From Chloroflexota bacterium (GTDB taxonomy: Bacteria > Chloroflexota > UBA11872): DNA of 64,000 bases. The stretch is from the NCBI GenBank assembly GCA_965262745.1, contig OZ253558.1:1090567-1154566 (forward strand), read 5' to 3'. The position numbers were made by a program, and so were the translations under genes. Below are positions 20,180 through 35,803 of the stretch, piece by piece; the stretch's first letter is position 1, and each line of letters begins with the position of its first letter. The notes under the pieces were generated by a model, which saw only the letters and a program-made list of their open reading frames with translations, searched no databases and was not told where the DNA came from.

Positions 20180-20385
20180 GCACTCACCAGGCTGTCGCCA
20201 CGCCCGAACCGCTGCCGCCGGATTCCCCCCTGTGGGCGCTGCCAAACGTGATGCTCACCGCCCACTACGCCGACTGGTCCGACACCATGCTCGACCGCAT
20301 CTACGCAATCTTCACCGACAACCTCCGCCGCTTTGATCGCGGCGAGCCCCTCCGCAACCAGCTCGACGTGCGGGCTGGATATTAG
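20180..20385 (+). pseudogene. Duplicated 3' fragment (about 65 codons) of the 2-hydroxyacid dehydrogenase gene
   Basis: Nt 20180..20385 are about 88% identical to 17345..17547. The remnant encodes PEPLPPDSPLWALPNVMLTAHYADWSDTMLDRIYAIFTDNLRRFDRGEPLRNQLDVRAGY, against the same tail in the intact gene, and ends at the equivalent stop. Confidence 0.85.
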
Positions 20386-21330: not shown

Positions 21331-21334
21331 TTGT

Positions 21335-22618
21335 CTACTGCTGATCGAAGTAGTCGCTGTACCAGAGACCGCCAAGCGGCAGACCTTCTTCGACCAGAGC
21401 TCGGACAATATGATCGTTGCTCGCCCTAGTAATGGTCGCGAAGCCGTCCGCCGATTTCTCCAAGATCCACGTTTCCTCGGGTGTCAGAGCATCGACGAAG
21501 TAGGGTTGGTGGGTCGTGACAAATATCTGGGGCGCGTTCCGGCGCCCCGAGGCGTGGCGGCGAAACTCATCGGCCAGCAATTCCAATAGTTTGTGATAGA
21601 GACCGTTTTCCGGCTCCTCGATGCATATGAACGGCGGCGGCTGCTGATCCTCCAGCATCAGCAGATACGCAAAGACTTTGAGTGTGCCGTCGGACACTTG
21701 CTGCGCGTAGAACGGGTCAGCGAAGCCCTTATCGTTGAAGCGCAGCAGCAAGCGACCGTCAGGACTGCGTTCCGTATCGATGCGGTCGATGCCGGGAACT
21801 CTCCTGGCAATCCGTCCAAGGATGCGTTCAAACCTATCGCGGTGCTCCCGCTCCATGAATTGCACGACGTTGCCCAGATTGTCTCCGTGGATATTCAGAT
21901 GCCGCTGGGGTCCAGCCATTGGCAACCCGCGCGCGGCGTCCGGCGTAAAGTAGCTCAGATACCAGCCTTCGATAAACTGACGAAAAGCCGCGATTCTCGG
22001 ATGTTGCTTCAGTGCCCCCAGGGTTGCAATACCCAGCTTGCGCTTGTCCTGAAGTTCAATAATCTCCCGTCCCGCGCCCTCCTCGTTTTCTAACCCTCTC
22101 AGTAGCGCTGAAAGGTCCACTTCCAGTCGGCCATCTTCATCGACCTGCAAACCCTGCACCTCGCCTGCCCAGGCCATTCCCTTGCCCTCGTTCAGCATCA
22201 AGAACGAAAATGGCCAGCCGCGTCTCTGTCCTCGACGACGCTGGCGCAGGCGTTCGCGTGAAACATAGGGGCGGCCCGAATCGTCCTTGTCGATCGCAAA
22301 TTCGTATGTGATCGGTCGAGCCTTCGAATCCTGCCGGTAATAGACCTCGAACTCGATGGGGGTGTCGCTACCCTGTGATCGTATGCGGTCGAACCCGCCG
22401 CGCCCACGCACGTCGCAGGCCTCTTCGACACCGAGCTTCAGGCAATCCGCCAGGAATCCGAAAGCATCGAATAGGGAGCTCTTGCCAACCCCGTTCTTTC
22501 CAATCACCGCCGTCAGCGGCTCTAACGGCTGGGCGGCAGGCGTGTTCCACAGCTTGCCTAGGGTGATGTCGTGCAACACCCGGTAGTTCCTGATGCCGAT
22601 GCCTTCGATACGGGCCAT
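21335..22618 (-). CDS. AAA_21/ABC-type ATPase (OLD/AbiL/PARIS-AriA-like ATPase component)
   Basis: There is a Walker A (GKNGVGKSSLFDAF) near the N-terminus, and a distal signature/Walker B region (FICIEEPENGLYHKLL...VTTHQP). Confidence 0.75.
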   Translation of the reverse strand: MARIEGIGIRNYRVLHDITLGKLWNTPAAQPLEPLTAVIGKNGVGKSSLFDAFGFLADCLKLGVEEACDVRGRGGFDRIRSQGSDTPIEFEVYYRQDSKARPITYEFAIDKDDSGRPYVSRERLRQRRRGQRRGWPFSFLMLNEGKGMAWAGEVQGLQVDEDGRLEVDLSALLRGLENEEGAGREIIELQDKRKLGIATLGALKQHPRIAAFRQFIEGWYLSYFTPDAARGLPMAGPQRHLNIHGDNLGNVVQFMEREHRDRFERILGRIARRVPGIDRIDTERSPDGRLLLRFNDKGFADPFYAQQVSDGTLKVFAYLLMLEDQQPPPFICIEEPENGLYHKLLELLADEFRRHASGRRNAPQIFVTTHQPYFVDALTPEETWILEKSADGFATITRASNDHIVRALVEEGLPLGGLWYSDYFDQQ

Positions 22619-22788
22619 GCGGTCAGTTTCTCTCGTTTAGCGCAGCACCGCTAGCAGCATAGCGTCGAGCAGGCTTGTTTCCACTGCCGCGAGGACAGAG
22701 AGCGGATAGGGCGTTGGCCAAGCGCCCGCGGTCGACGTCGCGGACCTTCTCGGGCCTCCAACAGATTGCGCACTGTCGCCACTTCGAA

Positions 22789-22835
22789 TGGTGCCCAGGA
22801 CGGGACTGGAACCCGCACAGCCCGGAGGCCACCAG
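22789..22835 (-). other. tRNA 3'-end remnant (variable arm, T-arm, acceptor 3' strand and CCA), a probable island att-site duplicate
   Basis: The reverse complement (tggcctccgggctgtgcgggttccagtcccgtcctgggcacca) matches the 3' 45 nt of the intact tRNA-Leu at 35720..35803 with 3 mismatches. The 5' part does not fold as a tRNA. Confidence 0.6.
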
Positions 22836-23031
22836 ACCCTAAACCGAGGTCAACCCACCGCCAGGCACTGCCGCAGCGCCTTGACCATGGCCGGTCGCTG
22901 CTCACGGCTCCTCGTGCCGACCGGATTGGCGATCGCCCGCATCACGACCTGTTGATCGGACGCTGAGAAGCGTAATCCCCGGCGCTGCTCCGCGGATGCC
23001 TGATACCCGCCACAGCCTCTGTCGCCCTGCA

Positions 23032-26000
23032 CTACGCGGGTGTGAGCGGGCTCTCAGCCTCGTCGTGGGCCATTTCAAACAGCCGCGCCAGGGCGTTGGC
23101 CAGGTGCATTTGGCGGGGCGTGCGGCAGCGCACGGCGAGCAAGCCCGGACTGGCCACGACTACCGCCAGGCACTTGGCGCGGCTGGTGGCGACGTTCAAG
23201 CGGTTGAGGCTGTAGAGAAACTCCATGCCACGCGGCGCCTCGTCGGCAGAGCTTGTGGCCATCGAGTAGATGGAAATCGGGGCTTCCTGGCCTTGGAACT
23301 TATCGACAGTGCCGATTCGCAACTCCCGGAGCTCAGGTCGGGATGCAAGCTCCCCGATCTGGCGGTTGTAGGGCGTGATGATGAGCACGTCTTGAGCGGT
23401 CAGCGCGTGGGTCGCGCCTTCGGCGTCAGTCCATGAGGCGCGCGACCGGAGCAACCGGTCGACGCTCTCGGCAATCGCCGCCGCCTCTTCCTCGGAGTCG
23501 CTGATGCGGCGCTCGTGCGACACGGCCACGAAGCGCAGTCCTGTCCCGAGGAACGGGGACGAGCCGGCCAGGTCCAAGTTCTCGCGGCCGGGATGCGCGC
23601 GCAGGTTGTCCTCGTAGAAGACTTCCGAGGTGAACTCACAGATGCTGGGATGCAGGCGCCACGTGCCGTCGAGAAACAGTCCGAAGTCCTTGGGCATCAC
23701 TCGTGCGTCATCGAGTACGTGCGCCAGCACCGAACGATCCGCGCCTGGCGGATGCACGCCCTGCAGCGGCTGATCCAGCTGCTGCGGGTCGCCCAGCAGC
23801 AACAGGCTCTTGGCGCAACGTGCCGAGGCCAAGGCGTCGGCCAGCGACATCTGCCCGGCCTCGTCGATGCAGAGCACGTCCACCAAGCCCTCCGCGTCGT
23901 CACGCGCCCAGAGCCAGGAAGTTCCGCCCACCACGTCAAGCGTTCCTCTGGCCAGGGCCATGCACGCATCCTCGGTTTTCGCGAGGGGTACCGCGTCCGC
24001 GAATTCGGGCTCGGCTGACCGGTAGCGGGTCCGCTGGCCGATCCTGACCGGGACGCCGCGCTCGCGGGCCACCCGCGCCGTCTTCTCCAGCAACTCACCG
24101 ATCACCTTGTGGCTGTTGGCCGTCACGCCCACGCGCTTACCCGCCTCCACGAGGTCCACGATCATCTCGGCACCAACCGTGCTCTTGCCCGAGCCGGGCG
24201 GTCCCTGGATCGCCAGGTAGCTCTCGTCCAGCATCTGCACCAGCCGCCGGGCCGCATCCTGCGCATCCTCGCCGTCCGCCGTCAGCGGTGATCCGTCGGT
24301 CTGTCCAACCCGTGGCGGACAGCGCATCAACAGGTCTCGGGCCGCCTGGTACGGCCCGGGCGCGTCGATCCCGTGCTCAATCACCCACGTCGCCAGATTC
24401 CGAAGGCTCGACGGTTTTGGCCCTGGATTGACATATTCGTAGGCGATCAGTGATGTCGGCGCCGGTGCTGCCCGGTTGGACCCAACCTTCAGGTCGATCA
24501 CGCCGTCTCGATCGTTTACCGCGACCACTTCGCCGATCGAATTTCCGTGCTGATCGCGTGGCCGGTCGCCGACTTCGATCTTGTGGTCCTGTGGCGGGAA
24601 CCGAAAGCTGTAGATCTTGGAACGCGACTTGGGCCTGGGATCGGCCCGACTGCGCACGTAGCTGAGCTGGCCCAGCGCGTCCGTCTCGCCGACTCGCTCT
24701 TCGTCGGTGAGTTCGTCCTTCAGGTGGAAATAGCGCCACCAGAACGCCTTATCCTCGCGCCGGTGCCAGTCGAGCAGCTGCGCCAGGAGCCACCGCCCGC
24801 GTTGGCTCGGATCTTCGAGCGACCTGCCGTCCGTCAAGTCCTCGGGCAGGCCCGCTGTCAGCTGGGCCACGAGTTCCTGCACCTCCCGCTGGGCCTCCGT
24901 GTCCTCGGTCTCTTCGGGAGGCTTGACCGTAGGACGCGGCGGGGCTTCGGCGCCGACTTCGTTCACCAGCGCGGCGCGCTGGACTTCCAGCCACTCGCGC
25001 AGATAGCAGGTGGAAAGACAGTCGTCGCGGTTATAGGCCCTGATCTTCTCCAGCAGGCCGTCCCGGTCGGTCCCGTCCTCGGGTTCGAGCCAGTTCTCGA
25101 ACTCCACGATGCTCTCGCCCGCATCGCGTAGATCGATTTCCCGCTTGAATCCGTAGAGCGGCTCCAGCCGCTTGATGGAGTAGCTCTCCACCGAAGCGCG
25201 AACGCCCTGCCGCACGACGCGGTAGAGGTCCACGAACACACTGCCCCGCAGCAGCTGGTCCACCTCTGACTCACGCGTGGCGTAGCGCCCCGCCAGCCGC
25301 TTCATTGCCCCTGTCTCGTAGGGCGCGTAGTGATAGACGTGCATGTCCGGGTGGCCAGTCCGGCGCTCCATGATGAGGTCGATACAGTCCTCGAACGCCT
25401 TACGCTCGGCCGCCGGCGACACGGTGCCGTCCGCGATCGACCAGAACGCGTGAAACCTGGGGTCGCCCGCGGCGTCCGTCTGTCCCGGCTCGATCACGCC
25501 GAAGAGGTAGTCGATGCCGTCGATCTCGTCCGAGCCATAGAACGGATCGCCCTCCAGGTCCAGGAACAGGTCACCGGGCGACGGCTCCGGCAACAGCCAG
25601 AGACCGCGGTCCGGAACAACCACGTCCTCGCGGTCGCGTTCGGGCGGGATGCGCTCCGAGATCACCTGGCCTTCGCCGCGCACCTGGATCGCCGCCTGGG
25701 CCTGCACCCGGGCCAGCGAAACCGGGCTGACGCCGTCCAGCTGTTCCGGCAGCGGCCGCGACGGATCGGCCAGCCCACCCCGTGTGGTCACGTCAATGGC
25801 GTGCAGGGCGCGTCGCTGGCGGGACGTCAGGTTGGCCACCAACGCCAGATCGTCTTCCCGACGCCACTGGGCTCGGCATTCCTGGTTCCACCTGCAGAAG
25901 TCGCAGTGCTGCATGGGTTCCGGCTTGGTCGAGATTGGAAACGCCGATTCGGAGTCGTCGAGCAGCGTCTCGAACTGCCGCGCGACCAGGCGGTAGTAGG

Positions 26001-26577
26001 CCCCGTAGTCGGCGACCCGAAGGCTCGCGGTCCTGCGCGCGACGCCGCCCAGCACCAGATGCATCCGTTCCGGCGGCCGCCCCTGCATTCTCCCGAGCAG
26101 GTCTGAATACATGCTGATCTGCAAGACGGCGGGGGCCGTGGGTTGCCGCGCCAGCTTGGTGTCCCAGACTTCATAGCTCCATGCCCCGAGGTCGCTGGGT
26201 TTCTCGACGCGGCGCAGGAAGTCCGCGTACCCCAGCCGCCGGTCGCCGAGCAGCACGGCCTGGTAGATCACGTCAACGCCATCTCGCATCGCCTGCAGCG
26301 TGGCGGCGTGCTCGGATTCAACCACTCGGGACGGAGACACGGTGTCGGGCGGCCGGATTTCCCTGATTCCCAGGTTCTCGGCGTCCAGCGATTCCAGGAA
26401 GCGCGCCTCATACTCCCGACCGCGCCGCGCCAAACGGTCGAGCACTGGGTCGTCACGAAACGGCCGTTTGAGGTCATGCAGAACCGCGGCGCGCTCCAGG
26501 TTGGCCAGGTGCCGGCACTCCAGGAACGCGACCAGATCGGTGGCGGAGTAGACCAGACGCCTATCAATCAGTTGCAT
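23032..26577 (-). CDS. RecB-like nuclease + RNaseH-like domain + SF1 (Upf1/Dna2-like) helicase fusion protein (TM0106-family N-terminal region)
   Basis: The 1181-aa ORF has an N-terminal RecB/Cas4-like region with a Cys cluster (HCDFCRWNQEC). It has a C-terminal Walker A (GPPGSGKST), a Walker B (CIDEAGQ) and SF1 motifs (GDPQQL, VATSRAK). Confidence 0.7.
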   Translation of the reverse strand: MQLIDRRLVYSATDLVAFLECRHLANLERAAVLHDLKRPFRDDPVLDRLARRGREYEARFLESLDAENLGIREIRPPDTVSPSRVVESEHAATLQAMRDGVDVIYQAVLLGDRRLGYADFLRRVEKPSDLGAWSYEVWDTKLARQPTAPAVLQISMYSDLLGRMQGRPPERMHLVLGGVARRTASLRVADYGAYYRLVARQFETLLDDSESAFPISTKPEPMQHCDFCRWNQECRAQWRREDDLALVANLTSRQRRALHAIDVTTRGGLADPSRPLPEQLDGVSPVSLARVQAQAAIQVRGEGQVISERIPPERDREDVVVPDRGLWLLPEPSPGDLFLDLEGDPFYGSDEIDGIDYLFGVIEPGQTDAAGDPRFHAFWSIADGTVSPAAERKAFEDCIDLIMERRTGHPDMHVYHYAPYETGAMKRLAGRYATRESEVDQLLRGSVFVDLYRVVRQGVRASVESYSIKRLEPLYGFKREIDLRDAGESIVEFENWLEPEDGTDRDGLLEKIRAYNRDDCLSTCYLREWLEVQRAALVNEVGAEAPPRPTVKPPEETEDTEAQREVQELVAQLTAGLPEDLTDGRSLEDPSQRGRWLLAQLLDWHRREDKAFWWRYFHLKDELTDEERVGETDALGQLSYVRSRADPRPKSRSKIYSFRFPPQDHKIEVGDRPRDQHGNSIGEVVAVNDRDGVIDLKVGSNRAAPAPTSLIAYEYVNPGPKPSSLRNLATWVIEHGIDAPGPYQAARDLLMRCPPRVGQTDGSPLTADGEDAQDAARRLVQMLDESYLAIQGPPGSGKSTVGAEMIVDLVEAGKRVGVTANSHKVIGELLEKTARVARERGVPVRIGQRTRYRSAEPEFADAVPLAKTEDACMALARGTLDVVGGTSWLWARDDAEGLVDVLCIDEAGQMSLADALASARCAKSLLLLGDPQQLDQPLQGVHPPGADRSVLAHVLDDARVMPKDFGLFLDGTWRLHPSICEFTSEVFYEDNLRAHPGRENLDLAGSSPFLGTGLRFVAVSHERRISDSEEEAAAIAESVDRLLRSRASWTDAEGATHALTAQDVLIITPYNRQIGELASRPELRELRIGTVDKFQGQEAPISIYSMATSSADEAPRGMEFLYSLNRLNVATSRAKCLAVVVASPGLLAVRCRTPRQMHLANALARLFEMAHDEAESPLTPA

Positions 26578-26723
26578 CGCCGATTCACCAGCCCGTCCCC
26601 ATGGCCGACGGCTTCACCCCGGCCACGCGTGCGATCAGCGCGAGCGCGTTGCCAACATACTCCGCGAGGCGACACCGGGCCAGATTGTGGGCCGCCTGCC
26701 GCGGCATGAAGCTGGGGCGACGC

Positions 26724-27452
26724 TCACAGCGGCAGCAGGTGCCCCGCTTCGCGCAGCCGCTGACGCCGCTGTTGCGCGTCCGGCATCGCTCTAACCACCA
26801 GCCCCCAGAAGTCCGGCCCGTGGTTCTTTATTGACAGGTGCGCCAGCTCGTGCACCACGATGTACTCGACAAGGGCAGGCTCCAACATCATCGCCCGCCA
26901 GTTGAAGCGCAGCGTGCCGTCCGGCGCGCAGCTCCCCCAGCGCCGGCGTTGATCGCGGATCAGCACGCGCGGCCAGTCGCCGTGACCCAGGCGCGGCCAC
27001 CAGCGCTCCACGCTAGTTGGCAGGCGGTCTGCCGCCCGCCTCCGATACCAGGCCACGAGGGCGCGCTGGGCACTGCGGGTTCGCTCACTATCGGACGCCC
27101 CCGTTGGCACCGTGACGCGGAACCGCCAGTGATCGAAGCGCACGCTCACCGACCTGACGTCGGCGTGCTCGACCAGCAAACGCACGTTGCGGCCCAGGTA
27201 AGGCAACGTCTCACCGCTCACAAAGCGCTTCGGCGCGGCGGCCAGCGTCTCCGCGGTGCTGCGGCGCATGATCCAGGCCGCCCGCTTGCGCACGATCCCC
27301 CGCAACTCCTCGGCGGGCGTCGAAACAGGCGCGGCGACCTGGACCCCGCCCCCGTCCACGGTGATCTGCACCGTCTTCCTGCGCCGCTGACTGCGCTGCA
27401 CCTCGAACTCGATCGTGCTCTCGCCGAAACGGACGGATCCCCGCTCACTCAC
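26724..27452 (-). CDS. DUF45/YgjP-like M48-type zinc metallohydrolase
   Basis: The HExxH motif (VVHELAHL) sits in a YgjP-like context. The ORF overlaps the hsdR stop by 4 nt. Confidence 0.65.
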   Translation of the reverse strand: MSERGSVRFGESTIEFEVQRSQRRRKTVQITVDGGGVQVAAPVSTPAEELRGIVRKRAAWIMRRSTAETLAAAPKRFVSGETLPYLGRNVRLLVEHADVRSVSVRFDHWRFRVTVPTGASDSERTRSAQRALVAWYRRRAADRLPTSVERWWPRLGHGDWPRVLIRDQRRRWGSCAPDGTLRFNWRAMMLEPALVEYIVVHELAHLSIKNHGPDFWGLVVRAMPDAQQRRQRLREAGHLLPL

Positions 27453-30400
27453 GATCCCGACCTCTGACGCGCCACGTCCACGATCTGGTGCGCCAGCTCG
27501 TCCAAGCGCTCTTCCGTGAAGTCCCCCGTGCCTCGCAGCTCCCGCTTGATATCCCGGCGCATCTCGCGCTGCACTTCAAGGTTCGACTGCCAATCGATCA
27601 CGTCGCTGTGACGCTGGATGGCGCGTTCGATCGCGCGCGCCACGGCCGTCGTCTGCTCGTCCAGGGCAGTGCGATAGGAGCCTGAAGCTTCGCCCGCGTC
27701 CACGCTCGGAGAGGCCAGCAACTCGTAGACCGCAAACGACACTGGCGAGAGCCCGTGCTGCGCGGCGATGTCCGCTTCGCTTTGGACCTGCTTGCGCAAT
27801 TCGGCCAGTCGCCGGCAGGCCTCGGCAGCGTCGATCAGCCGCTGACGCAGTTCCTGGATGATGCGGTCCAATTGCTCCGAGAGCTTCTCATAGAACGCCG
27901 GGTTTTCCGCCAGTCGCTCGTTGATCTGGGCGCGGACCGCGTGCTCCATCAGCGACGCCCGCGCTTCGTCGTGCGGCAGGTCGGCAATCTTCGCCTCGAA
28001 GTCCTGATCCAGGATCGAGAGCGGCTGCATCAGGCTGCGCACCTTGGCGTCGATGCGCTCGTCGATCAGGCCCTTCACCTTCGCGCCAATATCGGTCCAA
28101 TCCAACTCCGCGTCCTCGCGCAGGAACTGCGCCCGCACATAGGCGCGAATCGCCGTCAGCCGCGCCAACCGCTGTACGTAGGGCTCGGCGCCCGGGTCCG
28201 GCAGGTAGCGGTCCATCAGGCGGGCGAACTGACGGTAGTCCGCGCTGAATCGCTCGAACAGGTCGGCCTTGAACGCGTCCTCCGAGGCGGCATCCGGCGC
28301 AAACAGCGCCGCGCAGTCCCACACGTTGCTCAGGTCGCGGCCCTTGAAGTGCGACTCCGCCTGCACCGCCGCGGCCTCGATCGCCGGCCCGGGATCCTCC
28401 TCCAGCTCGCGCATGGAGTCCTGCACGTCTGGCCAGTCGAACGTCGCCAGCGCCGCCTCCAGGTCCCGCGAGACCCCGTGATAGTCGATCACCAGGCCGT
28501 GCCGCTTCTCCGTGTCCACGTTGTCCGGCCGGTGCGCGAAGCGCCGGTTCACGCGGGCAATCGCCTGCAGCAGGCCGTGTTCCCGCAGCCCACGGTCCAG
28601 GTAGAGCACCTGCTCCACCGGCGCGTCAAACCCGGTCAGCAGCATGTCCACCACCACCAGGATCTGCGGCTCGCCCTCGGGGTCCACGAACGCGCCGGTG
28701 ATCTGCTCCTGGTTGAGATCGCGCGCCGCGGCGAACTCCGGGCCGTCGTTGTTATCGGTGGTGATGATCGGATAGGCGCTCAGCCCAAAGGTCTTCAGGC
28801 GCTCCGCGTAGCGCAGCGCCGCCGCCCGGCTGGGCGCCACCACCTGCGCCTTGAACCCGTTCGGCTGCACCTTGGCCTTGAAGTGCTGGGCAATATCCAG
28901 CGCGATCATCTCGATGCGACGCTCCGCCTCCGCCACCGTCTCCTTGTTCGCGTAGCGCCGCCGGATGCGCGCCTGCGTCTCCTCGGACTCCTGGCCGAAC
29001 ATCTCCTCGAACAGCGTGTCCAGCGTCTCCGGCCCCTCGATGTGCAGTTCCGGCAGCCGCGCCTCGTAGAGGATCGGCACGGTGGCGCCGTCGGCGACCG
29101 ACTGCGGAATCGTGTAGGAGTCGATCAGCGAACCGAATCGCCGCATCGTGCTGTGACCGAAGTCCTTGTCGATGGGCGTGCCCGTAAAGCCGATCAGCGC
29201 TGCGTTGGGAAGGGCCTTGGACATGCGCGCGCCCAGCAATCCGTATTGCGTGCGGTGCGCCTCGTCCACCATCACCACCACCTGCTCCGATGGGTTCAGC
29301 ACATCCAGCCGGCCCTTGGGAGTCGTCAGCGCGTCCTCGAACTTCTGGATTGTCGTCATCACCGTGCGGCCGCCGCCGCTTCTCAGCAGCCGGCGCAGGT
29401 TGCGGGCGTTGGTCGCCTGCTCAGGCGCCGGAAAGCCGCAGCGTTGGAAGGTGCCGCTGATCTGCCGGTCCAACTGCGTGCGGTCGGTCACCACCACGAT
29501 CGTCGGGTTGTGCAGCCGCGGCTCGCGCCGCAGCTTGGTGGCCAGCCACAGCATCGTCAGCGACTTGCCCGAGCCCTGCGTGTGCCACACCACCCCGCCG
29601 CGCTCCTCGGGACGGCGGCCCGTCAACAATCGCTCCAGCGCCGCTCGCACCGCGCGGTACTGCTGATAGCGCGGCAGCTTCTTCACCAGCTTGCCGGCCT
29701 GCGGCTCGTAGACCACGTAGTCGCGCAGGATGTCCAGTAGCGTGGCCGGCGCCAGCAGCCCCACGATCAGCCGCGCCTGGCCCTCTGGTTCCACCCCGAA
29801 GCGCTGCCGCGCCTCGGCTTCCGAATAGGGCAGCACCGACTTCCATTCCACGTAGGCGTTCTCGGGCGCGCCCAGCGTCGCGTACGCCGCCGCGGCTCCG
29901 CAGTGCGCCACGCACAGCAGGTTGGTGTGGAACAGCTCCGGCGCGCCCGTCCCGTGCCACTCGGGCCCCGCTTCTTGGTAGCGACGCAGCTGGCGCACCG
30001 CCTGCGTCCGCCACACGTCCAGCAGCGACGGCGATTTCGCCTCCATCACCACCAGCGGCACGCCGTTCACGAACAACACCAGGTCCGGCTTCACCACCCG
30101 CTGGTCGTCTTCCTGGTTGCGCCGCTCGTTACCCCGACGCACCCGGAACTGCGTCGTCACCACGAACTCGTTCAGCCCGCCCTCCGGATGATCGAAGTCG
30201 AAGAAGCGCGCAATCCGGCTCTGGCGACCACTGGGCGTGTCCACCCCCAGCGGCATGCCGTAGATCAGGTGCTCGTGCACGCGCTGATTGCGGGCCATGC
30301 CGCTGAAGTCGCTGCGCTCCAGATCAGCCACCACCCAGTCCGCCTGCGACTCGGTCATCCAGGCGTTCAACCGCAGCAACGCCCGCCGCAACCGCCCCTT

Positions 30401-30538
30401 TAGCAACACCTCCCGCTCGTCCCCGCGCTCCGCCGCCAGCGTTTCGCGTGGGACGTACGTCCAGCCCAGTCTTTCAAGCAGCTCCCGCGCCGGGTTCTCG
30501 GCGTGATGGAGCTCATTGAGCCTGGCGGGAGTGGTCAT
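27449..30538 (-). CDS. hsdR: Type I restriction enzyme R subunit (HsdR)
   Basis: The 1029-aa ORF has helicase motifs (DEAHRTQ, FTGTP) in HsdR-type architecture. It lies in an operon with hsdS and hsdM. Confidence 0.9.
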   Translation of the reverse strand: MTTPARLNELHHAENPARELLERLGWTYVPRETLAAERGDEREVLLKGRLRRALLRLNAWMTESQADWVVADLERSDFSGMARNQRVHEHLIYGMPLGVDTPSGRQSRIARFFDFDHPEGGLNEFVVTTQFRVRRGNERRNQEDDQRVVKPDLVLFVNGVPLVVMEAKSPSLLDVWRTQAVRQLRRYQEAGPEWHGTGAPELFHTNLLCVAHCGAAAAYATLGAPENAYVEWKSVLPYSEAEARQRFGVEPEGQARLIVGLLAPATLLDILRDYVVYEPQAGKLVKKLPRYQQYRAVRAALERLLTGRRPEERGGVVWHTQGSGKSLTMLWLATKLRREPRLHNPTIVVVTDRTQLDRQISGTFQRCGFPAPEQATNARNLRRLLRSGGGRTVMTTIQKFEDALTTPKGRLDVLNPSEQVVVMVDEAHRTQYGLLGARMSKALPNAALIGFTGTPIDKDFGHSTMRRFGSLIDSYTIPQSVADGATVPILYEARLPELHIEGPETLDTLFEEMFGQESEETQARIRRRYANKETVAEAERRIEMIALDIAQHFKAKVQPNGFKAQVVAPSRAAALRYAERLKTFGLSAYPIITTDNNDGPEFAAARDLNQEQITGAFVDPEGEPQILVVVDMLLTGFDAPVEQVLYLDRGLREHGLLQAIARVNRRFAHRPDNVDTEKRHGLVIDYHGVSRDLEAALATFDWPDVQDSMRELEEDPGPAIEAAAVQAESHFKGRDLSNVWDCAALFAPDAASEDAFKADLFERFSADYRQFARLMDRYLPDPGAEPYVQRLARLTAIRAYVRAQFLREDAELDWTDIGAKVKGLIDERIDAKVRSLMQPLSILDQDFEAKIADLPHDEARASLMEHAVRAQINERLAENPAFYEKLSEQLDRIIQELRQRLIDAAEACRRLAELRKQVQSEADIAAQHGLSPVSFAVYELLASPSVDAGEASGSYRTALDEQTTAVARAIERAIQRHSDVIDWQSNLEVQREMRRDIKRELRGTGDFTEERLDELAHQIVDVARQRSGS

Positions 30539-30906
30539 GGGCTCTCCCCGCGGGAGTCCTCCAACATCTTTCGCAGCTGCGGCAGCATGCTTGGGATCGC
30601 ATCTTGAATTATCGACCAGATGATGACGTCACTGATGTGCAAATAGGAGTGCGCCAAGCGATTGCGGACCCCGATGATTGCGCGCCAGGGAATCATGGGA
30701 TATGCCTCACGCGCGTCGGATGGGATATGCGTTGCCGCCTCACCGATCAGTTGGATGTTGCGCAACGTGGCGTCGTGGATGAGACCGTCGGCTGCGAAGG
30801 CGTCCTGATCCAGTCCATCCGTATATGACAGGACTTTCTCGGCGAACTCGATCATGTCCTGAACGTAAAGATTCCAGCGTCGACCTTCTTCATGGGTCTC
30901 ACACAT
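30535..30906 (-). CDS. HepT-like (DUF86) toxin of a HepT/MNT toxin-antitoxin pair
   Basis: The RX4HXY-like motif is present (RNRLAHSY). The start at 30906 overlaps the MNT stop by 8 nt. Confidence 0.65.
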   Translation of the reverse strand: MCETHEEGRRWNLYVQDMIEFAEKVLSYTDGLDQDAFAADGLIHDATLRNIQLIGEAATHIPSDAREAYPMIPWRAIIGVRNRLAHSYLHISDVIIWSIIQDAIPSMLPQLRKMLEDSRGESP

Positions 30907-31216
30907 CCACGGCCTCCCGTTCCACGTGCGGACGCATTTCGGCCCGAACGTCCTCCCGGGTCGCCAGTTCCACCGGTCGTTGCAGCAGGTCTTCCAGGTA
31001 GAACTGGGCTCCGAAGTAGGTCCGCCAGTTCGGAGGAGCGTCGAACCGCACCAGGATGTCAACGTCGCTCCCGTCGGTACCTTCGTCCCGGGCATAGGAG
31101 CCGAACAGGGCGAGATCCGCGACGCCGAATCGCTCCGCCAGCACCGGCCGGTGGGCTCGGAGCATCTCCAGCACTTCCGCTCTGGTCATGGCGTCACTCC
31201 GTCGAGGCGGGCGCAT
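30899..31216 (-). CDS. MNT-type nucleotidyltransferase antitoxin (PF01909-like)
   Basis: The 105-aa ORF has the GS...D.D nucleotidyltransferase motif (LFGSYARDEGTDGSDVDILV). Confidence 0.75.
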   Translation of the reverse strand: MRPPRRSDAMTRAEVLEMLRAHRPVLAERFGVADLALFGSYARDEGTDGSDVDILVRFDAPPNWRTYFGAQFYLEDLLQRPVELATREDVRAEMRPHVEREAVDV

Positions 31217-31370
31217 GCATTACGACTGGCAGCCTGGCATCCTCGTGTTCGCCCCCGCGCTCCGCCGCCAGTGTTTCCCGTGGCACGAAGGTCGAACCCA
31301 GCTTCTCAAGCAGCTCTCGGGCCGGGTTCTCGGCGTGATGGAGCGCGTTGAGCTTCGCGGGCTGGCTCAC
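31194..31370 (-). pseudogene. Duplicated 5' end of hsdR (about 40 codons), open as a 58-codon GTG-initiated ORF ending just before the MNT start
   Basis: The reverse complement translates to VSQPAKLNALHHAENPARELLEKLGSTFVPRETLAAERGG. The authentic HsdR N-terminus is MTTPARLNELHHAENPARELLERLGWTYVPRETLAAERGD. DNA identity to 30400..30538 is about 85%. Confidence 0.7.
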
Positions 31371-31924
31371 GACCTATTCGACCCTGTGGCCTTGCTGATG
31401 GCTCGACTTGCACCGTCCAGCCGACGCATTAGGTGATTCGCCAGCGTCAGAAGCTCAAGTGCAACGTCAGAATCATCCTCGAGCCCGTGCTCATGCGCAC
31501 GCGGATTCCTAATGCCCGTCATCGCCCCGGCATAGATATCCATGTAGCCAAGCTGTTCGTCACGGTCAGAGTTCGACTGAAAATCATTCATACAAAGAGT
31601 GGGTGAATTAACACTAAATGCTTTTCGCATAAGACTCGCACCATCCTGACCCAATATACCCGACTTTTGCTTGACTTCATTGTTCATGCATTTCAAAGCT
31701 TCTTCAACAGCCCGCGCATAGTGACCATCAGCAAACAATTGGCGGCTCACTGAACGAAGCGCCTCGCTTGTCACCACATCGTCGAATCGGTCAAGGACGG
31801 TTCGCTCGTCGGAGTGAGCACGATCCCGCCTTGATAACGTTCTCCCCAAGCCTGCCTCGTCTGCATCCATTTGAACATCGTTGGCTGCCTTGAGCCAGCC
31901 ACGATAACCTCCACGGTTAGCCAA
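31367..31924 (-). CDS. Hypothetical protein embedded in the type I R-M operon (possibly TIGR02391/PF09509-like)
   Basis: This is a 185-aa, lower-GC ORF. Recognisable blocks include ALKCMNNEVKQK and IRNPRAHE...LELLTLANHLMRRL. The family call is from memory only. Confidence 0.35.
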   Translation of the reverse strand: MANRGGYRGWLKAANDVQMDADEAGLGRTLSRRDRAHSDERTVLDRFDDVVTSEALRSVSRQLFADGHYARAVEEALKCMNNEVKQKSGILGQDGASLMRKAFSVNSPTLCMNDFQSNSDRDEQLGYMDIYAGAMTGIRNPRAHEHGLEDDSDVALELLTLANHLMRRLDGASRAISKATGSNRS

Positions 31925-31927
31925 GCG

Positions 31928-32716
31928 TCATTCATCCTTCCGACCGTACAGGTGTCGTGCCATGCTTCGAAAGATTTGGTCAATTTGATCGGCTGTAGCG
32001 CTAGAATCAATATGAATCTGACTGTCAATGTGTACAGATGGGTCAGCAGTCGCTACAGATACCGTAGTAGCCGAATTCAGTAAATCGTTGCCTTGAGGCG
32101 ATGGGTCCGCGCTTGGCTGAACATCATCCGGGATTTGTGATTTCGCACCGTCTGGCATGTTTTCTAGGGCATGGCCGATCGTTATCAGCCGCTCACTTCC
32201 ACTTACCTGTTGGATGATCCCAAGGTAGCGTGCATTTGCCATAACGATATTCCCAGCTTCCGCACGGTATCCATCGGGAACCCCTACCAGACCCAGTTCA
32301 TCTTTCAGCACATCGTCGGCAGGGACTCGCTGGTTCTTTAGCCGGCCGTACAGCTGGTTGAACGGATCGATCCGACCAATCGCATGCTCGAATTCCATCC
32401 GTAGCTTCGCCTGCCGTTCAACCGATTCATCGACGATAGATCTACCCTCTGGTGTGAGTTCCAGGAAATCCGCTTGATAGCCTCCTGATGTAAGGCCATA
32501 GCGTCCTGAACTCGTAACAAGCTCGCGGCTCGGACCGCTTTCCGGGGCACGGCCCAGCCTGTCAAACAGGGTTAGTCGCCGCATCCGGTCTCCCGCGCCT
32601 TCCATGGCGATGGTGCGTGCAATCGATAGCGCGTCCTCAAAGGTGACAGTCGGATAGGTCTTGGATGGACCGCGGCTTCGACGCGGGCTCGATGCGGTGT
32701 CCTTGGAATCTGTCAT
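31928..32716 (-). CDS. Hypothetical protein (262 aa), lower GC, between hsdS and the preceding unknown gene
   Basis: The ORF is clean and packed 4 nt from its neighbours. I recognise no family. Confidence 0.4.
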   Translation of the reverse strand: MTDSKDTASSPRRSRGPSKTYPTVTFEDALSIARTIAMEGAGDRMRRLTLFDRLGRAPESGPSRELVTSSGRYGLTSGGYQADFLELTPEGRSIVDESVERQAKLRMEFEHAIGRIDPFNQLYGRLKNQRVPADDVLKDELGLVGVPDGYRAEAGNIVMANARYLGIIQQVSGSERLITIGHALENMPDGAKSQIPDDVQPSADPSPQGNDLLNSATTVSVATADPSVHIDSQIHIDSSATADQIDQIFRSMARHLYGRKDE

Positions 32717-34011
32717 CGTTCCCCCTCTGTCGCTATCGGAACCCTCAAGGATCCCGTCAACAGTGTGTCCGTCATTGACGCTTTTAGCGATTGTACAGAG
32801 AATCGCTCCTGGAACGTCATTTCAATCGCACCCCTCGCACCGGCTATGATCTCGGCGATAGCCCGCTGCTCGCAAAGCGATGGGAGGGCAACGGTGAGTG
32901 ATCCTACTTGCTCAAGGTTGATATTCGCCTGCGCCAACTCTGAGCGAAGATCATCGACCTGCTTCTGTACCATCTTTCCGCTTAGCATGAGCGCCGTGAA
33001 CTCGGGCGTAGCCCGCTGATTCTTGGCCAATCGAACAATTGCGAGAGCCTGATTAACATTCGCGGGAAGGTGTTCACTCGTAATCAGAGCTGATCGACCG
33101 AGTGCACCAGCAATGCTCAAGAGGATGTCACCGGCTTGTAATATCGATCGCGAAAGCATCTGGTGGGTTTCACCGGTGATAAAGCGCAGTTCTCCACCTG
33201 TCACCAACCCGTCAGCGATGTTCTCGACGCGCAGGAATCGCACACCTGCTGGCACGTACTCGTGGCCCAAGGTGGTTGGCGTCGTTCCCTTGGTGATTCG
33301 CTCACATATCGCCTTCAGCCGCACGACTTGCCAGTCTGCCGGGATGATTCCCAGGCCGGGCACGCTGCGCCATTCGGTATGCCAGCCGGGAACGCCGCGG
33401 GTGAGGAGGTCGTGGAGCAGGGCGTCGCGCAGGCGCTCGGTGGCGCTGATGACCGCCTCGGTGTGTTCGATGGCCTCGTCAATGGCATCCAGCACGGCGG
33501 CGATAGCACACTGTTCCGACAGCGGTGGTAGAAGAATCGGTAGGGAACGCGTTGCATCCAGCGTCAGACCGAATCGCGTGATCCCGTTCGCCACACGAGC
33601 AAACTCTCGGCGTGATGCCTGAGAGCCCAATGCTTCTGCAAGGAATTGACCTTCTACGACCGTCGGCCGCGGTCGCGCCATTCCAAGGTGATAGCCGCAC
33701 AAGACATTAGGCATCGTGTCTGTGACATAAGCGGCGATACCTATTTCGTCAGGGGTTTCGGAGTCTTTTGTGAAGAGCACGTCACCACGCTTCAGGCTCC
33801 AGCGCTTGTGCTCTTTCGCAGTCGCCGTAGCTTCCATGAACGGCATTCCAGGTCCGATGAGTCGATTGTAAAACACGTCCGTATAGTTGCAGAGTTGAAC
33901 TGGTATTTCACTGTCCATTTTCTTCTTGTCTACTCCACTAAAGGCAATAGCTGCCACGTCCCCCAGCTGCACCACTCGCCACCCGTCCGGCAACTCACTC
34001 AGATCGCGCAT
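32713..34011 (-). CDS. hsdS: Type I restriction-modification specificity subunit (HsdS)
   Basis: The ORF has two target-recognition domains separated by conserved helical spacers, and sits between hsdM and hsdR. Confidence 0.8.
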   Translation of the reverse strand: MRDLSELPDGWRVVQLGDVAAIAFSGVDKKKMDSEIPVQLCNYTDVFYNRLIGPGMPFMEATATAKEHKRWSLKRGDVLFTKDSETPDEIGIAAYVTDTMPNVLCGYHLGMARPRPTVVEGQFLAEALGSQASRREFARVANGITRFGLTLDATRSLPILLPPLSEQCAIAAVLDAIDEAIEHTEAVISATERLRDALLHDLLTRGVPGWHTEWRSVPGLGIIPADWQVVRLKAICERITKGTTPTTLGHEYVPAGVRFLRVENIADGLVTGGELRFITGETHQMLSRSILQAGDILLSIAGALGRSALITSEHLPANVNQALAIVRLAKNQRATPEFTALMLSGKMVQKQVDDLRSELAQANINLEQVGSLTVALPSLCEQRAIAEIIAGARGAIEMTFQERFSVQSLKASMTDTLLTGSLRVPIATEGER

Positions 34012-34093: not shown

Positions 34094-35623
34094 TTAGCGC
34101 TCATAACCCAGCTCCGCCAGCAGCTTGTCCATCTTCGCCACCGCCTCATCGCGCCGCCGTTCGGCCTCTCGCAGCTGCGCCAGCGCCTCCTCCACGCTGA
34201 GCACCTCTATGGGCTCGCTGGTATCCACGTAGCGGCTGATGTTGAGGTTGAAGTCGTTGGCCTCGATCTCCGCCAGGTCGGCCACGTGGGCGAAGCGCTC
34301 GACATCCTCGAAGCCGCGGTAGGCGGCGACGATCTTTTGGATGTGCTCCCGGTCCAGGAAGTTCTGCGCCTTGCCCTGGCGGAAATAGCCCTCCTGCGCC
34401 GCGTCCACGAACAGCACCTTGCCGCGCCGCTCGCTGGGCTTGGCCTTGTTGAGCACGCAGATGGCCACCGGGATGCTGGCTCCGTAGAAGAGGTTGGGCG
34501 CCAGGCCGATCACGGCCTCGAAAAGGTCGCTTTCGACGATGCCGCGGCGGATCTTGCCCTCGGCGCCACCACGGAACAGCACCCCGTGCGGCATCACCAC
34601 GCCCACCATGCCCGTCATGGTGGTGACGGCCAGCATGTGCAGCAGGAACGCCAGGTCGCCCCTGGTGCGCGGCGGAATCGCGCCATAGCGGTCGAAGCGG
34701 TGATGCGGGTCGTCGGGCGCGAAATCGTGGCCCCAGTTCTTGAGGCTGAACGGGGGATTCGCGATCACCCGGTCGAAGGCCAGCAGGCGGCCGGCGTTGT
34801 CCAGCAGGCGCGGCTCGGCGATCACGTCGCCTTCCTCCAGCCGCGCGGCGGACAGCCCATGCAGCAGCAGGTTGAGCTTGCCGGCGGCCAGCGTGCCTCG
34901 GTTGCGCTCCTGCCCGTGCAGCACCAGGTTGCGCCGGTCGCCCCCCTGCTCCTGCACGAACTGCGCGGTGTAGATGAGCATGCCGCCCGAGCCGGCCGTC
35001 GGGTCGCAGATGCGCATGCCCTCACGCGGCTGCAGCAGCTCGACGATCAGCCGCACCACCGGGCGCGGGGTGTAGAACTCGCCGCCCTTCTTGCCGGCGT
35101 CGTCGGCGAACTGATTGATCAAGTATTCGTAGGCGTCGCCCAGCACGTTGTCCGAGCCGCCGTCCGCGCCGCGCAGGTTCGCGTCGCGCAGGTCAAGCTC
35201 GCTGAAGTGGTTGAGCAGTTGGCGGATGATGCGCTCGCGGTTGGCCGGGCTGCCCAGCCGGGATTCGTCGTTCCAGTTGACGCTGGTCAGCACGCCGTCC
35301 AGCCGCTGCACGTTCTCAATTTCGATGTTGTGCCCGGCCACGTTGAGGGTCTCGCCCAGGTTCATGGACGCCCTCACCAGGGCGGGCCAGCGAGCGGATT
35401 CCGGCACGAAGAACTCGTGCTCGTCGTGGTCCGTCAGTGCCGTCTGGCGCGGCACGCCCGAGGCCACGGCGGCCTCGACCTCTTCGTCGAACCGGTCCGA
35501 CAACCGCTTCAGGAACAGCACCGCAAAGATGTAGTTCTTGTAATCCGCCGCGTCGATCTGCCCGCGCAGGATGTCCGCGGCCTGCCAGAGCTTGGATTGC
35601 AGTTCCTGCTGACTGAGCGGCAT
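34094..35623 (-). CDS. hsdM: Type I restriction-modification N6-adenine DNA methyltransferase (HsdM)
   Basis: There is a SAM-binding motif, the catalytic NPPF motif (ANPPFSLKNW) and an HsdM N-terminal domain. The real start is MPLSQQELQSKLW at 35623, and the longer ORF would run into the tRNA. Confidence 0.9.
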   Translation of the reverse strand: MPLSQQELQSKLWQAADILRGQIDAADYKNYIFAVLFLKRLSDRFDEEVEAAVASGVPRQTALTDHDEHEFFVPESARWPALVRASMNLGETLNVAGHNIEIENVQRLDGVLTSVNWNDESRLGSPANRERIIRQLLNHFSELDLRDANLRGADGGSDNVLGDAYEYLINQFADDAGKKGGEFYTPRPVVRLIVELLQPREGMRICDPTAGSGGMLIYTAQFVQEQGGDRRNLVLHGQERNRGTLAAGKLNLLLHGLSAARLEEGDVIAEPRLLDNAGRLLAFDRVIANPPFSLKNWGHDFAPDDPHHRFDRYGAIPPRTRGDLAFLLHMLAVTTMTGMVGVVMPHGVLFRGGAEGKIRRGIVESDLFEAVIGLAPNLFYGASIPVAICVLNKAKPSERRGKVLFVDAAQEGYFRQGKAQNFLDREHIQKIVAAYRGFEDVERFAHVADLAEIEANDFNLNISRYVDTSEPIEVLSVEEALAQLREAERRRDEAVAKMDKLLAELGYER

Positions 35624-35719
35624 CGGTTCTCCCTGTGGCGCTGTGGGGGCGTAGGTACTGATGGCGCCGACAAGCGAGTCTCGCAGATGCTCACGGCGCG
35701 GCCGCGCGGTGTGAACGGG

Positions 35720-35803
35720 TGCCGAGGGCGGGACTCGAACCCGCACAGCCCGGAGGCCACTAGCCCCTCAAGCTAGCGCGTCTACCAATTCCGCCACCTC
35801 GGC
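35720..35803 (-). tRNA. tRNA-Leu (anticodon GAG), type II with a long variable arm
   Basis: The reverse complement gccgaggtggcggaattggtagacgcgctagcttgaggggctagtggcctccgggctgtgcgggttcgagtcccgccctcggca folds as a cloverleaf by hand. It has a 7-bp acceptor stem, a D-arm, an anticodon loop ttGAGgg, a 15-nt variable arm and a T-arm gcggg/ttcgagt/cccgc. Confidence 0.8.

Follow-up and report, generated by a model that had tools for sequence, protein, structure and literature searches.

A tRNA-bounded island in a Chloroflexota genome carries, beside a type I restriction-modification (R-M) system, one large gene for a putative nuclease-helicase, raising the question of whether its product defends the host against foreign DNA, repairs the host's own DNA or acts on something else. 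We address this question in a window of 64,000 nucleotides, the whole stretch of DNA that was analysed, and among homologues of the gene in other genomes.

Domain architecture and predicted active sites

The gene encodes 1181 amino acids and has a GC3 of 0.83, like the other real genes of the window. Judged by its sequence, the protein is a typical full-length member of the TM0106 family (TIGR03491; COG2251; PF13482 with AAA_11/AAA_12). NCBI names homologues accordingly, and no difference was found between the protein and this family, which is a bioinformatic label. The NCBIfam model TIGR03491 ("TM0106 family RecB-like putative nuclease") matches residues 11-530 over model positions 2-462 of 462, scoring 251.5 bits against a cut-off of 97.45. 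The original prediction, of a Cas4/RecB-type nuclease with a Cys cluster, an RNase H-like middle region and a Upf1/Dna2-like helicase of superfamily 1, had named TM0106/PDDEXK, RNase H-like, AAA_11 and AAA_12 as the domains to look for. All were matched: RNase_H_2 at residues 337-530 (5.6e-18), AAA_11 at 781-852, AAA_12 at 963-1143 (3.2e-24) and, weakly, PDDEXK_1 at 123-235. Profiles of the nuclease and exonuclease domains (the N-terminal 545 residues) found no solved relative among PDB sequences.

The polypeptide combines three modules whose predicted catalytic sites are all intact and strongly conserved (Table 1). Conservation was scored in 136 homologues of 37-85% identity. The predicted active-site residues of the nuclease are D119, E136, D139, K141, Q153 and Y157, of which D119, K141 and Y157 are invariant and the other three invariant or at least 90% conserved. 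Its four predicted Fe-S ligands, C21 and C225-x2-C228-x5-C234, are invariant, and a helix-hairpin-helix-like stretch, read by eye, follows the nuclease at about residues 244-272. Conserved residues of the exonuclease domain are D340, E342, H416, E421/D450, Y515, N516 and D519; D340, E342, Y515 and D519 are invariant or at least 90% conserved. The same holds in the helicase for K798 (the Walker A lysine), E906, Q909, R1126 and R1133. Both helicase motifs of the original prediction are present, Walker A (GPPGSGKST, about 792-801) and CIDEAGQ (903-909), which contains motif II (D905-E906-A-G-Q909), together with GDPQQL (929-934), VDKFQGQE (1091-1098) and R1126...R1133.

The architecture has been noted before. 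Majorek et al. (2014) described for COG2251 a Cas4-like nuclease, an RNase H-like exonuclease and tandem AAA (helicase) domains, and the PF13482/COG2251 exonuclease groups with the PolB proofreading exonucleases (PMC3985635). A literature search on TM0106, TIGR03491, COG2251, PF13482 and "RecB-like putative nuclease" turned up no study of the family's function, in agreement with the earlier remark that this architecture lacks experimental characterisation.

Table 1 Features of the 1181-aa gene and its surroundings (positions in the window)
Feature	Position	Strand	Evidence
HEC-01 candidate defence pair (AAA_21 ATPase + DUF4276) of low G+C, immediately beyond the repeat-bounded segment	20677..22618	-	
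59-nt partial direct copy (86%) of the tRNA-Leu 3' part, 183 nt past the stop of the 1181-aa gene	22790..22848	-	
Whole gene, TM0106/COG2251-family nuclease-exonuclease-helicase, 1181 aa, ATG start	23032..26577	-	ORF, Pfam, NCBIfam, homologues
SF1B (Upf1/Dna2-like) helicase core, residues 771-1175 (predicted)	23053..24267	-	Pfam, NCBIfam, phmmer, conservation, Foldseek
Putative helical stalk and small beta-barrel before the motor, residues ~560-770	24268..24900	-	Model secondary structure, Foldseek, alignment
RNase H-like DEDDy 3'-5' exonuclease domain (PF13482), residues ~325-545 (predicted)	24943..25605	-	Pfam, conservation, PolB-exonuclease kinship (PMC3985635)
Cas4/RecB-type PD-(D/E)XK nuclease, residues 1-300 (predicted)	25678..26577	-	TIGR03491, weak PDDEXK_1, conservation, model secondary structure
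YgjP-like metallopeptidase, overlapping the end of hsdR; 146 nt upstream of the 1181-aa gene, same strand	26724..27452	-	
Type I restriction subunit HsdR	27449..30538	-	
MNT/HepT toxin-antitoxin pair inside the hsd operon	30535..31216	-	
Hypoth_Ymh, HEPN-type; similar to PD-Lambda-3_B and Aga_HEPN	31367..31924	-	
Type I specificity subunit HsdS	32713..34011	-	
Type I methyltransferase HsdM, longest ORF	34094..35746	-	
tRNA-Leu(GAG), integration hotspot bounding the segment on its other side	35718..35803	-	Rfam

Structure model

An AlphaFold model computed from a diverse alignment has a pLDDT of 91.1 and a pTM of 0.90; it was used instead of an earlier run on a shallow alignment (at least 64% identity), which was poor (pLDDT 61). 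The top PDB matches in Foldseek are the Dna2 structures 5EAN and 5EAX (E 1.9e-24), followed by Upf1-like helicases, and the alignments to IGHMBP2 and Upf1 chains span 650-705 columns. As modelled, the overall organisation is closest to that of Dna2. Residues ~560-770, the least conserved part of the protein, probably correspond to the stalk and beta-barrel of Upf1-like/Dna2 helicases.

Setting of the gene in the window

The tRNA-bounded island and the type I R-M neighbour of the original prediction are both present. The tRNA-Leu gene and the 59-nt copy of its 3' part bracket a 12.9-kb segment (22849-35717) that includes HsdR, HsdS and HsdM; since the longest HsdM reading frame overlaps the tRNA, its real start is probably internal. 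The 1181-aa gene had been taken for the lead gene of this island, and it is instead the last of a co-directional run, hsdM...hsdR-ygjP-gene. Within the run, the MNT/HepT pair is flanked by a 121-nt direct repeat (30409-30529 / 31241-31361). Promoter and terminator scans of positions 22500-27600 found nothing. The G+C content of the gene (0.668, against a window mean of 0.659) equals that of the genome, and it has diverged in step with the flanking housekeeping genes. Rfam detected only this tRNA and no CRISPR repeat family in the 64-kb window, and no cas domain was found among the annotated neighbours. The TM0106 family is not known to be associated with CRISPR arrays.

Distribution and neighbourhoods of homologues

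The family is patchy and mobile, and its members lie time and again amid defence systems. At 50% identity the full-length homologues fall into at least 150 clusters; they come from at least a dozen phyla, in a distribution that is not clade-wide. Carriers include Pseudomonas luteola (WP_150345624.1), Ensifer (WP_275028092.1), Rhizobium and Sphingobium. Nearest relatives belong to the same phylum in 52 of 72 cases, suggesting that much of the inheritance is vertical; some belong to another phylum. Sixty-nine plasmids carry a member, 26 of them conjugative, and defence genes lie near it in all seven plasmids inspected. These neighbours include DrmD-like and TmtA-like proteins, a Bil-like Ubl/E2/E1 operon, SIR2 with an ATPase, and WYL/HEPN genes. 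A tblastn search of 50,697 phage genomes gave no family match, and IMG/VR holds about seven full-length copies among 2.9 million viral contigs; a phage origin was rejected on these results. Matches in BFVD are to nidovirus-type helicases only.

The TM0106-helicase gene has no obligatory partner gene. No conserved partner was found across about 95 loci from many phyla, and in an all-against-all clustering of 1222 neighbour ORFs the largest neighbour family spans five of 78 loci. Many copies have opposite-strand genes on both sides. A small AbrB/MazE-like upstream gene was considered as a partner and rejected, being confined to three genomes (loci L083-L085).

The association with defence genes extends well beyond this window, to 78 loci spread over many phyla. 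Among the neighbours that can be recognised, defence systems are the most frequent; many other neighbours are ordinary metabolic genes. Within two genes on either side of the homologues at these loci, PADLOC identified SngC (four times), SngB (three), BrxHI/HII (five), BrxD, MTase_I, DpdF, HEC-05, PsyrT and HamB (two each), as well as type III R-M, IIG R-M and PD-T4-6. The recurrent systems are Shango, type I, III and IIG R-M, BREX/Dpd/DISARM-like helicases, Gabija, Zorya, Hachiman, SIR2 and Bil-like genes. Many strong defence matches occur among the 244 immediate neighbours, and the control genes 7-10 kb away also held defence systems (Gabija, Zorya and type I R-M), so that these distal genes give no clean background for an estimate of enrichment. 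In Erythrobacter and Bradyrhizobium the gene is directly preceded by Shango-like genes on the same strand, and in Hyphomicrobium a type I R-M and YgjP cluster recurs beside the homologue. A second tRNA-Leu island houses a 65% identical homologue (L090) together with an integrase, TIR, HicA and type I R-M. In three of 12 close relatives (L083-L085, 77-84% identity), the gene occupies one conserved, stable housekeeping locus about 3 kb from recA. The original prediction was to fall if orthologues proved to sit predominantly in housekeeping contexts, and these three relatives go part of the way there.

Proposed function and alternatives

We consider the protein a stand-alone, ATP-driven DNA-degrading machine, most likely a one-gene factor of innate immunity to incoming phage or plasmid DNA, and hold this reading with about even confidence. 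The original prediction of a single-gene immunity factor survives in part: the defence neighbours, the plasmid copies and the second tRNA-Leu island argue for it, whereas the three relatives near recA argue against it, leaving an immunity reading that is plausible yet drawn from genomic context. In the mechanism that we propose, the SF1B motor would load on a single-stranded tail or DNA end, move 5'->3' and, by analogy with Dna2, pass the strand on which it tracks to the Fe-S PD-(D/E)XK nuclease. The DEDDy exonuclease would trim the 3'-ended strand, so that neither strand of a linear or broken duplex would survive. The overall outcome would resemble RecBCD/AddAB degradation, carried out by one protein. 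In this window it may work alongside the neighbouring type I R-M system and, for example, complete the destruction of restriction fragments. The direction in which the helicase moves, whether the protein acts on DNA or RNA and how it tells self from non-self are points that we infer.

A somewhat unlikely alternative is an accessory enzyme of DNA repair or recombination, which would resect ends at double-strand breaks or stalled forks as a one-polypeptide analogue of Dna2, AddAB or AdnAB and would be carried around by plasmids and islands, as the accessory repair genes imuA-imuB-dnaE2 and SbcCD are. The structural match to Dna2, the native G+C, the high conservation and the inheritance largely within phyla are consistent with such a role, as is the locus close to recA. 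At that locus the L085 homologue abuts imuA-imuB-dnaE2; a dnaE2 orthologue lies 21.6 kb from the gene in our window, in the same convergent orientation, and SbcD-like and SbcC-like genes follow the family member on plasmid pISP0. However, the adjacency to imuA-imuB-dnaE2 is seen in one genome only, and across the 78 loci no repair gene recurs beside the gene, defence systems being its commonest recognisable neighbours. The patchy distribution also argues against a repair role, as does the lack of a LexA-type box (GAACN4GTTC) near the gene; the two in the 64 kb are both elsewhere, against 0.7 expected.

It is improbable that the target is RNA, with a Upf1-like motor tracking foreign or aberrant transcripts that the two nucleases would degrade, in a manner comparable to the Mokosh helicase. 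The closest solved sequence relatives of the motor are indeed the RNA helicases IGHMBP2, Upf1, Sen1 and SETX, PADLOC matches MkoA over the helicase part, and HEPN/HepT RNases neighbour the gene in this window. Yet Cas4/RecB-type Fe-S nucleases and PolB-type DEDDy exonucleases act on DNA, the best fold match of the whole protein is a DNA enzyme, the stretch after the nuclease resembles a DNA-binding helix-hairpin-helix, and the effector of Mokosh, a PLD nuclease, is neither fused nor adjacent. Least probable of all is that the gene serves mobile elements rather than host protection, processing DNA ends at plasmid or island establishment or countering host nucleases: plasmids, conjugative ones included, carry it, T4SS, relaxase or replication genes adjoin some copies and others lie in integrase-bearing islands, but most sampled copies are chromosomal and away from transfer genes, the plasmid copies sit among defence genes and not in leading regions, and phages essentially lack the gene, of which IMG/VR contains few copies.

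Immunity against incoming DNA also admits a broader form, possible but put forward tentatively. The TM0106-helicase family could be a widespread immune system of a single gene that has gone unrecognised: a "Dna2 plus proofreading exonuclease" that would attack invading or restricted DNA at its ends and destroy both strands. It could act as a portable substitute for RecBCD and as the nuclease effector of type I R-M and of Shango, to which it is operon-linked in three unrelated lineages; we know of no nuclease in Shango. The repeated coupling to these two systems offers a testable idea of how they finish off DNA.

If the protein is an immune factor, it represents a common defence gene that PADLOC 2.0 and NCBIfam 20.0, which contain no defence model for the TM0106-helicase family, leave unflagged. 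Its enzyme logic, a single chain that unites an Fe-S nuclease with a 3'-5' exonuclease and a 5'-3' motor, would then be new among described single-gene defences. If it is a repair enzyme instead, bacteria would have in it a one-chain equivalent of Dna2-type end resection. On either reading, a function could be given to a large conserved family.

Comparison with known defence and end-processing systems

Dna2 of eukaryotes and archaea (5EAN) has, like the 1181-aa protein, an Fe-S PD-(D/E)XK nuclease ahead of a Upf1-like SF1B helicase on the same chain, together with the beta-barrel/stalk, and is the protein's best Foldseek match over the whole length. However, the TM-score of 0.36-0.40, the identity of 13% and an rmsd of about 26 A suggest that the domains match and their arrangement does not. 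Similarity by phmmer is limited to about 85 helicase residues (1061-1144, 1.1e-8), and an extra DEDDy exonuclease lies between nuclease and helicase; with the low TM-score, these differences argue against orthology to Dna2. A counterpart of Dna2's N-terminal OB/alpha1 region was not apparent. A helicase/nuclease fusion that one sentence in the literature describes as Dna2-like and as accompanying a defence system is similar by that description.

Mokosh shares a Upf1-like (COG1112-type) helicase core, with matches to MkoA (PDLC03920, 1.8e-39) and MkoC (PDLC03924, 3.7e-25). These are confined to the helicase part (profile positions 890-1090 of 1112), and the N-terminal 770 residues are unrelated. 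Membership in Mokosh (MkoA/MkoB or MkoC) was rejected because neither the protein nor its neighbours in the window contain a PLD domain.

Closer in concept are Nhi of Staphylococcus and Hna of Sinorhizobium and E. coli, single-gene nuclease-helicase phage defences that are activated via phage SSB or replication intermediates (PMC10732053). Their genomic lifestyle is also the one proposed here for the 1181-aa protein, although no PADLOC match at E<=0.1 was labelled Nhi or Hna. To our knowledge, neither a DEDDy exonuclease nor an Fe-S Cas4-like nuclease has been reported for them.

AddAB, RecBCD and AdnAB combine helicase motors with RecB-type nucleases, which in AddB carry an Fe-S staple. Starting at a DNA end, these complexes degrade the two strands, and RecBCD also destroys restricted phage DNA. 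They provide the working analogy for the proposed degradation of two strands. They differ in being multi-subunit enzymes with SF1A UvrD-like motors (plus RecD, which ranks 48th and 49th in the Foldseek search), whereas the 1181-aa protein has a single AAA_11/AAA_12 motor, predicted to be SF1B, and a putative DEDDy exonuclease in place of the second RecB nuclease.

Domain architecture and predicted fold of the target protein

Judged by its sequence, the target belongs to the TM0106/COG2251 family; each defining feature that was tested was found. The open reading frame stands as first read, and its GC3 (0.83) is similar to that of other genuine genes in this 66% G+C window. The domain search proposed in the original prediction matched RNase H-like, AAA_11, and AAA_12 domains in Pfam and, weakly, PDDEXK_1, and the NCBIfam model "TM0106 family RecB-like putative nuclease" was matched well above its cut-off. 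Both predicted Walker motifs are in place. In an alignment of 136 sequences (37% to 85% identity), the Fe-S ligands and the nuclease, exonuclease, and helicase residues listed in the table are invariant or at least 90% conserved, indicating purifying selection on all three modules.

Among sequences in the PDB, the helicase part alone has relatives (IGHMBP2, SETX, Upf1, Sen1, Dna2, and nsp13); the nuclease and exonuclease domain profiles recovered no solved relative there by sequence. AlphaFold gave a pLDDT of 61 with a shallow alignment, and a diverse 66-sequence alignment was used instead (pLDDT 91.1, pTM 0.90). When the PDB was searched with this model in Foldseek, the top match was Dna2 (5EAN, E = 1.9e-24), which aligned across the full length at a TM score of only 0.36 to 0.40; Upf1-like helicases came next. 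Residues 560 to 770, comprising helices and a small beta-barrel, probably represent the stalk/1B-type module of Upf1-like motors, and a helix-hairpin-helix-like stretch was seen by eye after the nuclease.

Features of the target protein, the window, and homologue loci (L-numbers, loci in other genomes or plasmids)
Feature	Position	Details
Target gene	23032-26577	minus; ATG start, 1181 codons
TIGR03491	residues 11-530	NCBIfam, 251.5 bits (cut-off 97.45)
PDDEXK_1	residues 123-235	Pfam, weak match
RNase_H_2 (PF13482)	residues 337-530	Pfam
AAA_11	residues 781-852	Pfam
AAA_12	residues 963-1143	Pfam
Fe-S ligands	C21, C225, C228, C234	C...CxxCx5C
PD-(D/E)XK residues	D119, D139, K141, Q153, Y157	
DEDDy exonuclease residues	D340-x-E342, H416, E421, Y515-N516-x-x-D519	
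SF1 helicase motifs	K798, D905-E906, Q909, GDPQQL, Q1095-G1096, R1126...R1133	all kept
Walker motif GPPGSGKST	residues 793-801	
Walker motif CIDEAGQ	residues 903-909	
dnaE2	3-1388	window starts inside gene
Cassette repeat	17349-17545 / 20187-20383	197 nt, direct, 88%
HEC-01 candidate pair	20677-22618	AAA_21 ATPase (PADLOC 1.6e-190), DUF4276 (1.1e-88)
tRNA-Leu copy	22790-22848	59 nt, direct, 86%; copies 35718-35776
Bracketed segment	22849-35717	12.9 kb
MNT/HepT repeat	30409-30529 / 31241-31361	121 nt, direct, 83%
262-aa ORF	31928-32716	G+C 0.545
tRNA-Leu(GAG)	35718-35803	minus
ADP-ribosylglycohydrolase	18065-19132; L082 13547-14536; L093 5271-7007; L094 about 11558-12358	
tRNA-Leu 3' fragments	L082 6297-6332, 8853-8888	
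imuA-imuB-dnaE2 cassette	L085 13545-19157	
Tandem units	L090 13593-14279	three of ~230 nt, parts 94-100% identical
Bil-like operon	L175 4600-7957	Phenylobacterium plasmid pA
Shango-like loci	L031 3994-10004; L036 3994-10004; L041 3993-9977; L037 13851-19636	

Size, spread, and mobility of the family

The architecture is already catalogued, and the family is thus not a new discovery, yet it is functionally blank. COG2251 has been described as a combination of PF13482, a DUF83-like PD-(D/E)XK domain, and tandem AAA domains, with a predicted 3'-5' exonuclease activity and kinship to PolB proofreading domains (Majorek et al. 2014, PMC3985635). A literature search on TM0106, TIGR03491, COG2251, and PF13482 found no functional study, in line with the claim that experimental characterization is lacking; a function for the family would fill a large annotation gap.

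At least 6891 of the 8000 candidates scored in a word-indexed search are relatives of the target, and when 50%-identity representatives were searched exhaustively with HMMER, at least 150 clusters scored E ≤ 1e-201, almost all of them full length (1100 to 1200 aa). Scanning one genome per species gave at least 596 candidate relatives, the best 80 of which span nearly the whole protein at 41% to 68% identity and belong to Chloroflexota, Acidobacteriota, Alpha- and Gammaproteobacteria, Bacteroidota, Actinomycetota, Myxococcota, Planctomycetota, and other groups. Of 72 nearest relatives, 52 come from the same phylum, indicating much vertical descent with some transfer, as between Sulfitobacter and another Rhodobacteraceae genome (96% identity).

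The family is present on 69 plasmids (60 with a full-length copy, 26 conjugative); it was found in none of 50,697 phage genomes, and only about seven IMG/VR contigs hold a full-length copy. Defense-like genes occur in all seven plasmid contexts inspected. These contain VapBC, an integrase, and SNF2; DrmD-like and TmtA-like proteins in the same operon as the homologue; HEPN, DUF3883, and WYL with SbcCD-like genes; DUF2357; dynamin, WYL, and HD; SIR2 and an ATPase; and a Bil-like operon (multiubiquitin-domain protein, E2/UBC, ThiF-type E1, and DUF6527) that leads straight into the TM0106-helicase gene without a change of strand.

The tRNA-bounded locus in the window

The target belongs to a co-directional minus-strand run consisting of tRNA-Leu(GAG), HsdM, HsdS, a 262-aa gene, Hypoth_Ymh/HEPN, MNT/HepT, HsdR, a YgjP-like peptidase, and, after a gap of 146 nt, the target itself, which is therefore the last gene and not the lead gene originally described. 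Just beyond its stop codon lies a copy of the 3' part of the tRNA gene, with a TAG-like anticodon region, not GAG, and an unrelated 5' half. The tRNA and its copy bracket the intervening segment like an element integrated at tRNA-Leu; no integrase was found within it. The description of a tRNA-bounded island beside a type I R-M system holds. The G+C content of the target (0.668) matches the window mean (0.659), as do hsdR and hsdM, and HEC-01, HsdS, Ymh, and HepT have values of 0.53 to 0.585.

A repeat copying the 5' end of hsdR flanks the MNT/HepT pair, which is thus apparently an insertion in the R-M operon. Neither Pfam nor PADLOC matched the 262-aa ORF that separates HsdS from the Ymh/HEPN gene. 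Past the tRNA-Leu fragment is the HEC-01 candidate defense pair, missing from the same site in L082, an 85%-identity relative. Beyond it, an Exo_endo_phos-like gene, an ADP-ribosylglycohydrolase, and a 140-aa gene form a cassette. The 3' end of a 2-hydroxyacid dehydrogenase gene is duplicated on either side of this cassette, suggesting a second insertion event at that gene end.

Genomic contexts of homologues

Pfam annotation of the surroundings of 12 close Chloroflexota relatives showed one conserved locus common to three of them (84%, 82%, and 77% identity), containing DUF3179, gamma-glutamyltranspeptidase, PRPP synthetase, Usp, RecA, ADH, a methyltransferase, a small AbrB/MazE-like gene, the target, and an M20 peptidase. 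One of these three, L085, has an imuA-imuB-dnaE2 mutagenesis cassette abutting the homologue; the dnaE2 of the window is 77% identical to that of L085 and likewise convergent with the target, with 21.6 kb of other genes between. The target has diverged as much as its flanking housekeeping genes, both within these three loci and between the window and L082. A predominance of such contexts would speak against an immunity role, but they characterize this one sublineage and do not predominate overall.

In L082, at the same chromosomal site as the window, the homologue lies among integrases, AbiEii, and a REase-ARP/PDDEXK_13 gene, with an Exo_endo_phos-like gene on its other side. Two further tRNA-Leu fragments are present, one adjoining an integrase, and the position of the target relative to such fragments differs between L082 and the window; the pattern resembles successive integrations into a single tRNA-Leu hotspot. 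Elsewhere, mini-islands in metabolic surroundings pair the target with an NsnB/AriA-like ATPase (three genomes) or an HNH_2 gene. An orthologous ADP-ribosylglycohydrolase (59% to 81% identity) lies a few kilobases from the target in four Chloroflexota genomes with otherwise differing flanks, following the homologue after 1 bp in L082 and fused to the 140-aa protein beside a HEPN_RiboL-PSP gene in L093; the two genes may be linked in function or may travel together as a cassette.

Across 78 loci, any one neighbor family occurs at 5 at most, and many copies have opposite-strand genes on both sides; the target gene is thus autonomous, without a partner gene, and its "standalone" description is borne out. 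Pfam and PADLOC were run on the same 244 immediate (±2) neighbors. The Pfam matches are heterogeneous, including housekeeping enzymes as well as BrxC/D, N6_Mtase, PLDc_2, GmrSD_N, TerB, PIN, HipA, TrwC/TrwB, and DEAD helicases. Strong PADLOC matches were to BrxHI/HII (five), SngC (four), SngB (three), BrxD, type I methyltransferase, DpdF, HEC-05, PsyrT, and HamB (two each), and type III R-M, type IIG R-M, PD-T4-6, and PDC-S01 (one each). Gabija, ZorB, PsyrA, and type I methyltransferases are still present 7 to 10 kb away, which indicates real islands yet spoils that set as a control.

Shango-like genes (SngB/SngC, TerB) lie directly upstream of, and co-directional with, the homologue in two Erythrobacter genomes and Bradyrhizobium (gaps of -46 to 23 bp), and immediately downstream, again co-directional, in a Thermotogae-labelled MAG; Shango is not known to have a nuclease. 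In Hyphomicrobium, a co-directional type I R-M and YgjP cluster follows the homologue. L090 carries a 65%-identity homologue in a tRNA-Leu(CAG) island with an integrase, AlpA, and a divergent type I R-M system carrying TIR and HicA genes. Tandem units lie just downstream of this homologue, before the AlpA/integrase end.

Proposed function and comparison with known systems

The target combines three intact catalytic modules in one chain with a Dna2-like organization, mobility, and a defense neighborhood. It is a candidate stand-alone nuclease-helicase defense protein with a distinctive three-enzyme build, and whether it is in fact an immunity factor, for which the evidence is contextual, we regard as an even call. 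In that role, starting from an end or gap, its SF1B motor would move 5'→3' along a single strand and pass it to the Fe-S nuclease in the manner of Dna2, and the DEDDy exonuclease would remove the 3'-ended strand. Foreign DNA that is linear or nicked, perhaps after cutting by a neighboring restriction enzyme, would in the end be destroyed processively.

The next reading, an accessory end-processing or repair enzyme, appears unlikely. An RNA-directed activity is less probable still: the nearest relatives of the motor are RNA helicases, and MkoA is matched at 1.8e-39, but the whole-chain fold match to Dna2, the PolB-proofreading type of the exonuclease, and the helix-hairpin-helix-like stretch make DNA the more likely substrate. 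That the gene serves the mobile elements themselves is likewise of lower probability.

As an immunity factor, the target would join Nhi and Hna, known single-gene nuclease-helicase defenses to which a PADLOC search showed no family tie. With Mokosh it has the helicase alone in common, the Mokosh PLD nuclease being absent, and RecD falls far behind Dna2 and the Upf1-like helicases as a fold match. The target resembles Dna2 in organization and probable working, yet is not its orthologue, and its Fe-S cysteine pattern is that of Cas4, AddB, and Dna2.
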